From NCBI GenBank assembly GCA_023428035.1, contig JAEYZO010000532.1:1-10698 (forward strand): a stretch of 10,698 bases of DNA, in the 5' to 3' direction. The notes beneath the pieces are model-generated. The model ran no database searches. It worked only from the letters and a program-made list of their open reading frames with translations, and had not been told where the DNA came from. A program made the position numbers and the translations under genes. This DNA is from Pseudomonadota bacterium. GTDB lineage: Bacteria; Myxococcota_A; Polyangia; Polyangiales; Ga0077539. This document shows, piece after piece, positions 6,230 through 6,964 of this stretch; position 1 is the stretch's first letter, and the number at the start of each line of letters is the position of its first letter.

Positions 6230-6964
6230 ATGTCGTTGGTGTTGCAGGACATTGATGCGCGAGTAAGCAAGGCCGTAGCGCACTACTGGGAGACGCTCGA
6301 GGCGCAAGAGCGACGCCAGAGGCGAGGTAGCGCCGACCGAGGGCGCAGGGCCGCTGTCACAGGCGGCAAGCAGATGGCAGGTTTCTGTGCGCTGGTGAAT
6401 CAGCTCTTGATCGAAAACGGGGTGCCCGAAGCGCACATATTCACGCAGCGGTACCTTGAACTCCCGGGATACTTCAGGCCCACGAAATCCTGGGACATGC
6501 TGGTGATTCACGATGGGCAGCTCATCGCGGCGTTGGAGTTCAAGTCGCAGCGAGGTCCCTCGTTTGGCAACAACTTCAACAACCGGACAGAAGAGGCCAT
6601 CGGCACGGCCGTAGACCTCTGGACGGCATACCGAGAAGAAGCATTTGGGAGGGGACACCCGCGGCCCTGGCTCGGGTGGGTCATGCTCGTGGAAGATTGC
6701 CCGCAGTCCTCTCGCCCGGTGCAGGTCGAGCGACCGCATTTCGACCCCTTCCCCGAGTTCGAGAACGCCTCGTACGCGCGCCGCTATGAGATCCTCCTGC
6801 GAAAGCTCAAGCTCGAGAAGCTCTACGACGGCGCTGCGTTCCTGCTGTCTACAGCGACGCAGGGGCCTCATGGTACCTACGTCGAGCCCGCGATCGACCT
6901 GAGCATGCGACGGCTGCTCGCCGGCCTCGCCGGTCACGCCGTCGCCGCCGCGGCGGGTGCGTGA
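6230..6964 (+). CDS. Putative Type II restriction endonuclease, PD-(D/E)xK fold, about 244 aa. Exact family unassigned; it could belong to an XhoI/PaeR7I-like or other small Type IIP family.
   Basis: ATG at 6230 with GGAGG 14 nt upstream. The ORF track extends to TTG 6176, but the low-GC block starts near 6225. Catalytic-looking motif LVIHDGQLIAALEFKSQ, that is, hD...ExK. Low GC, with A/T-ending codons atypical of the host. A GTGA overlap couples it translationally to the methyltransferase start. Confidence 0.55.
   Translation: MSLVLQDIDARVSKAVAHYWETLEAQERRQRRGSADRGRRAAVTGGKQMAGFCALVNQLLIENGVPEAHIFTQRYLELPGYFRPTKSWDMLVIHDGQLIAALEFKSQRGPSFGNNFNNRTEEAIGTAVDLWTAYREEAFGRGHPRPWLGWVMLVEDCPQSSRPVQVERPHFDPFPEFENASYARRYEILLRKLKLEKLYDGAAFLLSTATQGPHGTYVEPAIDLSMRRLLAGLAGHAVAAAAGA

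Follow-up and report, generated by a model that had tools for sequence, protein, structure and literature searches.

A probable horizontally acquired restriction-modification cassette of the XhoI/PaeR7I family, with the endonuclease gene first, in a Polyangiales-like myxobacterial contig

Background

Establishment of a restriction-modification (R-M) system in a new host normally requires that methylation precedes cleavage, and an R-M locus in which the endonuclease gene is read first, and which has no controller gene, therefore raises the question of what enzymes it encodes, how it came to lie where it does and how it could be established there. Such a locus is present in contig JAEYZO010000532.1 of GenBank assembly GCA_023428035.1. 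The whole of this contig, about 10.7 kb with 70% GC, was analysed and is referred to here as the window; the same contig is found in the assemblies ENA ERZ27268836, ENA ERZ28594556 and Logan SRR13347294. An earlier reading made from the letters of the DNA without database searches (the sequence-only reading) had recognized a nuclease gene coupled to a methyltransferase gene, albeit without a family for the nuclease. With a probability of roughly 0.8, bases 6158-8665 represent a compact, horizontally acquired Type IIP R-M cassette of the XhoI/PaeR7I family. The elements of the cassette and its surroundings, all given on the plus strand, are the following (R, restriction endonuclease; M, methyltransferase; DR, direct repeat; UTR, untranslated region):

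6037..6157, plus strand: DR1, the last 118 nt of a GH25 muramidase gene (stop 6152-6154) and 3 nt beyond it
6158..6229, plus strand: leader, 72 nt between DR1 and the R start, the presumed promoter and 5'UTR of the cassette
6208..6226, plus strand: leader hairpin of 7 bp, CGCGGAG-GUACG-CUCCGCG
6230-6964, plus strand: R gene, XhoI/PaeR7I-family nuclease, 244 aa
6961..6964, plus strand: GTGA junction, where the R stop TGA (6962-6964) overlaps the M start GTG (6961-6963)
6961-8658, plus strand: M gene, gamma-class methyltransferase, 565 aa
8666..8786, plus strand: DR2, a non-coding remnant that follows the M stop after 7 nt and ends at the stop codon of a gene for a 365-aa protein (8787)

The endonuclease and its family

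The R gene has the lowest GC content in the window (0.634), and its GC content at third codon positions (GC3) is 0.776, compared to 0.846 for M and 0.896-0.992 for the six flanking host genes. It is also the poorest fit to host synonymous-codon usage among the genes of the window, so that the sequence-only reading was right to call it the most compositionally foreign of them. The mechanically delimited open reading frame (ORF) opens at TTG 6176; the resulting 262-aa version was rejected, since the homologues are of 244 aa and their alignments begin at ATG 6230. The gene calls of the two ENA assemblies begin R at an internal ATG; their 196-aa version was rejected as well, because it loses the conserved residues 15-48.

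R matches the Pfam family XhoI (PF04555) almost from end to end (profile positions 2-190 of 191; E=2e-82), scoring 276.2 bits where the cut-off is 25, and the PADLOC model REase_II at 4.5e-90 over residues 1-242. The family that had been left unassigned can thus be named from a full-length match. At least 7,996 homologues of R were found at E<=0.001, several of which carry the source names "PaeR7I family type II restriction endonuclease" (NCBI) or "Restriction endonuclease XhoI"; no family was matched in a scan of R against NCBIfam. XhoI/PF04555 has already been listed as a PD-(D/E)XK family in surveys (PMC3424549; Table 1 of PMC2441816).

The hD...ExK core recognized by the sequence-only reading consists of W88-D89 (D89 at nt 6494-6496), E103 (6536-6538) and K105 (6542-6544), which are invariant among 30 close homologues. 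D89, E103 and K105 (WD...ALEFKSQ) are also invariant in a 13-sequence alignment that covers the sampled gene arrangements, and the check on ExK conservation which that reading had proposed therefore turned out in favour of a nuclease. The latter alignment has 46 invariant columns in total, including S106, G109-P-S-F112, N114-N-F-N-N-R119 and E121-E122, i.e. a block S106...GPSF.NNFNNR.EE122.

No solved structure related to R was detectable by a sequence search. A structure was predicted from the alignment with AlphaFold2 (AF2), giving a model with a mean predicted local distance difference test score (pLDDT) of 82.1 and a predicted template modelling score (pTM) of 0.84, in which D89 directly precedes a strand of residues 90-94, and E103 and K105 lie within a strand of residues 97-107. 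The values tabulated beside this model are 10.4 for NucC, 10.1 for NgoMIV, 9.6 for PspGI, 9.5 for BstEII, 8.7 for Kpn2I, 8.6 for BsoBI, 8.0-8.2 for PfoI, BbvCI and Cfr10I, and 7.6-7.9 for BsaWI, Bse634I, AgeI, EcoRI and SgrAI. The restriction enzymes in this table (NgoMIV to SgrAI) belong to the EcoRI-like branch of PD-(D/E)xK nucleases, typically producing 5' overhangs, among which a C^TCGAG cutter would fit. By homology, R is a PD-(D/E)xK Type IIP restriction endonuclease, an uncharacterised new member of the known XhoI/PaeR7I family.

The methyltransferase and the likely specificity

The M protein contains motif I (LEPACGVGAF) at aa 62-71 (nt 7144-7173) and NPPY, motif IV, at aa 156-159 (nt 7426-7437), followed by a C-terminal target-recognition half of the TaqI_C type, which is the motif order of the gamma class. 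Pfam matches are to Eco57I (1.1e-19, residues 148-243) and TaqI_C (2.6e-6, residues 416-514), the PADLOC model MTase_II is matched nearly full length (2e-192, residues 27-552), and the best relatives in the PDB are M.BseCI (1.5e-20) and M.TaqI. As judged from these motifs and matches, M is a gamma-class N6-adenine DNA methyltransferase of the M.TaqI / M.PaeR7I type. The matches of both proteins agree with the pairing of a PD-(D/E)xK Type II endonuclease and an adenine methyltransferase that had been proposed from the sequence.

In annotated records, PaeR7I-family nucleases adjoin homologous methylases, described as "Eco57I-domain" or "N-6 DNA", on plasmids of Pseudomonas, Aeromonas, Enterobacter, Phaeobacter, Nitratidesulfovibrio and Corynebacterium. 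PaeR7I, from the Pseudomonas plasmid pMG7 (site CTCGAG), and its relatives on IncP-type, Aeromonas, Enterobacter and Desulfovibrio plasmids share with the window both the PF04555 nuclease family, including D...ExK and GPSF.NNFNNR.EE, and the gamma-class Eco57I/TaqI_C methyltransferase family, which can be aligned over its full length. These plasmid systems likewise consist of two adjacent or overlapping co-oriented genes without a controller (C) protein. R is 50-54% identical to the PaeR7I-like nucleases of proteobacterial plasmids and 46% identical to that of the Corynebacterium plasmid, the invariant block being common to all. Compared with the PaeR7I-like methylases, the catalytic half of M is 43-48% and the target-recognition half 40-45% identical, in nearly gap-free alignments. 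In Pfam, PF04555 is a family of CTCGAG enzymes, and to our knowledge no characterised member of it has another site.

PaeR7I recognizes CTCGAG, cleaves after the first base (C^TCGAG) and is accompanied by N6-methyladenine (m6A) at the fifth base (PMC3031569). Because R and M are both homologous to PaeR7I-like pairs, CTCGAG with m6A is probably the specificity of the system of the window as well. The nuclease would then act as a homodimer that recognizes CTCGAG and cuts C^TCGAG, and the methyltransferase would protect the host by making CTCG(m6A)G; the likely product is an XhoI isoschizomer.

Several points weigh against this assignment. The identity of R to the PaeR7I-like enzymes is only about 50-54%, a distance at which Type II specificity can change. 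In addition, one of the plasmid enzymes used for comparison (L005) is not confirmed as PaeR7I itself, the cluster names are generic, and in some plasmid records the label "PaeR7I" is attached to truncated copies. The number of CTCGAG sites in the window (11, with 9.1 expected) gives no sign of depletion, which is uninformative rather than contrary.

The sequence-only reading had suggested a different and possibly new recognition sequence, and an XhoI/PaeR7I-family enzyme with such a site would be compatible both with these identities (50-54% for R, 40-48% for M) and with the nuclease tree, in which the clade of the window is separate from the plasmid clade. Against a new site stands the conservation of block S106-E122, and of the 46 columns in all, across the sampled arrangements, as well as that of the target-recognition half of M, which is nearly gap-free and as well conserved as the catalytic half. 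With the characterised member of the family, PaeR7I, cutting at C^TCGAG (PMC3031569), the suggestion finds no support, and we consider it rather improbable.

Gene order in XhoI-family systems

The partner methylase was located in each of 80 species-representative genome loci most similar to R (L008-L087), and four annotated plasmid systems (L004-L007) were added, the PaeR7I-like gene order being taken from the annotated plasmid records. The 80 genome loci are distributed as follows:

R then M on the same strand, beta-class N6_N4 methylase (PF01555): 59 loci
R then M on the same strand, gamma-class methylase like that of the window: 12 loci
M then R, beta-class methylase: 8 loci
R at the end of the available sequence, no partner seen: 1 locus

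R therefore precedes M on one strand in 71 of the 80 loci, and M precedes R in 8. The most common junction in this sample is a 4-nt overlap, ATGA or GTGA. A methylase is the neighbour of R in 83 of the 84 comparison loci, the exception being the R gene at a sequence end. The four annotated plasmid systems are gamma-class with M first, and differ in this from the window; they also differ in location, as the cassette of the window lies on a chromosome-like contig of a Polyangiales-like myxobacterium.

R-before-M is the norm among the closest sampled relatives and not an oddity, as the sequence-only reading had taken it to be. There are also experimentally dissected precedents in other families. 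The operons of Eco29kI and EcoRI have R upstream of M and no controller, and face the same difficulty of establishment (PMC3113576, PMC12707154).

In a neighbour-joining tree of the nucleases, which was made without support values and is descriptive only, the arrangements largely follow nuclease clades. Uncharacterised gene pairs from metagenome-assembled genomes (MAGs) of Myxococcota and Deltaproteobacteria (L088, L089, L090, L008-L020, L081) have the same gamma-class R-then-M architecture as the window, with a tight junction, and form one clade of the R tree. Their R proteins are 59-79% and their M proteins 57-75% identical to those of the window, and their insertion sites differ from that of the window. 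Within this clade R is grouped with three metagenomic relatives (L088, L089 and L090) with 76-79% identity. Two beta-class loci with M before R (L010 and L015) are nested within the gamma-class R-then-M clade, which suggests a replacement of the methylase. The XhoI-family nucleases with beta-class PF01555 partners are 51-66% identical to R and retain its invariant residues; most commonly, R lies before M with an ATGA overlap. Their partners, by contrast, belong to an unrelated methylase class of about 310-390 aa, for which the modified base is either m6A or N4-methylcytosine (m4C).

The R-M junction, the leader and possible regulation

The order of endonuclease and methyltransferase and their 4-nt GTGA overlap were given correctly by the sequence-only reading; a GTG at 6967 is an alternative start of M. 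R precedes and abuts M on one strand, a geometry that matches one feature of the Eco29kI/EcoRI-type layout; in Eco29kI the two genes also partially overlap, as they do here (PMC3113576, PMC12707154). The nucleases of these systems are unrelated to R, that of Eco29kI being a GIY-YIG enzyme (PMC1952068). In the relatives of the cassette the spacing of the junction ranges from -4 to +22 nt. The M start of the closest relatives lies between 1 nt after the R stop (GTG, L088) and 19-22 nt after it (ATG in some MAG relatives), and the window has no ATG at the latter position.

The absence of a C-protein gene, noted from the sequence, was confirmed. The gap between the GH25 stop and the R start is only 75 nt long and that between the M stop and DR2 is 7 nt, DR2 itself adjoining the next gene, so that there is no space for a controller gene. 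None of the 10 shadow ORFs in the cassette region has a Pfam match or encodes a helix-turn-helix (HTH) protein, and no controller gene is called in L088-L090 either.

The 72-bp region after DR1, in which a promoter had been suspected, is exact in its coordinates, and homology of the leader to other cassettes starts at 6191. Its hairpin pairs the sole GGAGG resembling a Shine-Dalgarno (SD) sequence (6211-6215) and ends 4 nt upstream of the R ATG. The leader fold (51-nt window) has a predicted energy of -21.9 kcal/mol (z -2.1), with 5 of 200 shuffles being equally stable, and the hairpin might dampen the translation of R. When 6925-6990 is folded in silico, the M start falls in the 3' arm of a predicted stem of 6931-6967. 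A terminator scan of 5800-8900 gave one match, which is chance level.

Translational coupling or a promoter in the leader, as suggested by the sequence-only reading, is plausible. A single R-M transcript would begin within the 72-nt leader or shortly before it, and translation of M would be coupled to termination of R at the GTGA junction; co-transcription and coupling by termination and reinitiation are proposed because the tight junction is conserved across clades, being present in 71 of the 80 genome loci. From a shared transcript, such coupling would mean that R is not made without M. For protection during establishment, weak initiation of R would probably be needed as well, or else a promoter within R that serves M alone or reads antisense, of the kind known from Eco29kI and EcoRI, or both. 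We put forward this scheme, in which one bicistronic mRNA serves both genes, R is initiated weakly, M is translated by coupling, and M-only or antisense promoters within the R gene may contribute, as a tentative one, somewhat short of an even chance.

Four observations count against it. The in-frame GTG at 6967 is equally possible as the start of M, no equivalent of the leader hairpin was found in the closest relatives L088, L089 and L090, and the junction stem 6931-6967 is no better than those of shuffled sequences (z -1.3). Moreover, a sigma-70 consensus scan of 5800-8900 gave 0 promoters with 0.2 expected. Such a scan is ill-suited to a 70% GC myxobacterial genome, and the outcome is the expected one for this GC content and phylum. 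In Eco29kI and EcoRI, experiments have located a promoter for M as well as antisense promoters within the R gene.

A methylation-sensitive promoter like that of CfrBI was also considered as a means of control, and is unsupported, since the family as a whole shows no excess of CTCGAG ahead of R (0.31/kb in the comparison loci, against 0.26/kb in distant flanks). The relative L089 is the only one with a CTCGAG there, at about position 4983, 18 nt upstream of its R start; the equivalent sequence is GTCGAG in L088 and GCGGAG in the window. It is unlikely, albeit worth bearing in mind, that the clade with R before a gamma-class methylase has drifted to a site other than CTCGAG, or that the R-first layout uses a control mechanism that has not been described for this family. 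An example of the latter could be obligatory translational coupling with a hairpin-occluded M start and intrinsically weak initiation of R.

Flanking repeats and mobility

DR1 and DR2 are 121 nt each, identical at 113 of 121 positions (93%) with a spacing of 2629, and bracket the cassette exactly. DR1 ends 72 nt before the R start and, as the left copy, forms the functional 3' terminus of the GH25 gene. The duplicated sequence coincides with the MYXO-CTERM-like tail of the GH25 protein. DNA homology to the three closest cassettes (L088-L090) is limited to 6191-8660, and these cassettes lie in unrelated neighbourhoods (kinase/TetR, FliO/FliP and acyl-CoA dehydrogenase genes). No long flanking repeats were found around the three of them. 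In L090 the M gene of the cassette is directly followed, at 6144-6416, by a unit of 42-43 nt that is repeated in tandem about five times.

The closest relative of the window is a Polyangiales MAG (GCA_041389825.1, L091), which is syntenic with it, at 92% identity for the 365-aa gene and the acyltransferase gene next to it and 86% for the GH25 gene, and which has a single GH25 tail and no R-M genes. DR1 and DR2 resemble each other more (93%) than either resembles the tail in this MAG (88-89% over the alignable 55-65 nt), which fits a duplication in the lineage of the window. The 121-nt repeats on either side fit the pattern called "insertion with long target duplication", in the words in which Nobusato et al. 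2000 is cited in PMC3031569. The cassette would accordingly have arrived by insertion between 121-bp repeats derived from the GH25 3' end.

One finding argues against so simple an event. The gap in L091 (11099-12337, corresponding to window 6115-8783) holds a 397-aa ORF of about 1.2 kb without a Pfam match, and the event may have been a substitution rather than a clean insertion. A clean empty site with a single repeat copy and no insert was not found. The position between the GH25 gene and the 365-aa gene is a variable locus, occupied by the R-M genes in the window and by the 397-aa ORF in L091.

An insertion of some age might have decayed or been domesticated, leaving R inactive or silent and M as a solitary methylase. 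The repeats differ by 7%, which does speak against a very recent insertion, R lacks a detectable promoter and a good SD sequence, its only GGAGG being inside the hairpin, and CTCGAG is not avoided in host DNA. Both ORFs are nevertheless intact and of full length, R retains every family-invariant residue, M retains motif I and NPPY, and the composition is still clearly foreign, which makes decay very improbable. That R is instead an effector nuclease like NucC, activated by a signal and serving as an accessory of type III CRISPR or of a cyclic-oligonucleotide-based antiphage signalling system (CBASS), is effectively refuted, despite the first place of NucC in the table of the model, by a sequence identity of 9% to NucC beside the Pfam XhoI match of E=2e-82, by a methyltransferase neighbour in essentially every locus and by the lack of any cyclase or CRISPR-type Pfam domain in the genes of the window, NucC itself being described as related to restriction enzymes (bioRxiv 10.1101/694703).

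Neighbouring genes

The other genes of the window are:

17-2473, minus strand: MVP-like gene
2611-3333: VTT-domain gene
3820-4422, minus strand: DUF6151 gene
4487-6154, plus strand: GH25 muramidase gene with a MYXO-CTERM-like tail
8787-9884, minus strand: conserved gene for a 365-aa protein, convergent with the cassette
9898-10608, minus strand: acyltransferase gene

The first of these encodes an 818-aa protein with major-vault-protein domains (MVP_shoulder and a weak match to Vault_3), in what appears to be a myxobacterial genome. The GH25 muramidase has an Ig-like domain (N_BRCA1_IG) in its middle, and its C-terminal GGCDARP...RRRRRR resembles a MYXO-CTERM sorting signal. In one of the ENA assemblies (L001) the GH25 gene is split into two genes of 170 and 371 aa (4725-6349), while it is a single gene in the other (L002, 4673-6298) and in the window.

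Conclusions

The enzyme of this locus matters little in itself, as it is one more copy, from an uncultured myxobacterium, in a family of thousands with a long-characterised prototype. The repeat-bracketed cassette illustrates the mobility of R-M systems in Myxococcota. For the family, the comparison reveals that XhoI-family nucleases occur in four fixed arrangements, with a gamma- or a beta-class methylase and with either R or M first in each case. Most have R first and overlapping genes, although M comes first in the textbook prototype PaeR7I. The XhoI family thereby offers a convenient natural experiment on the establishment of R-first systems that lack a controller.
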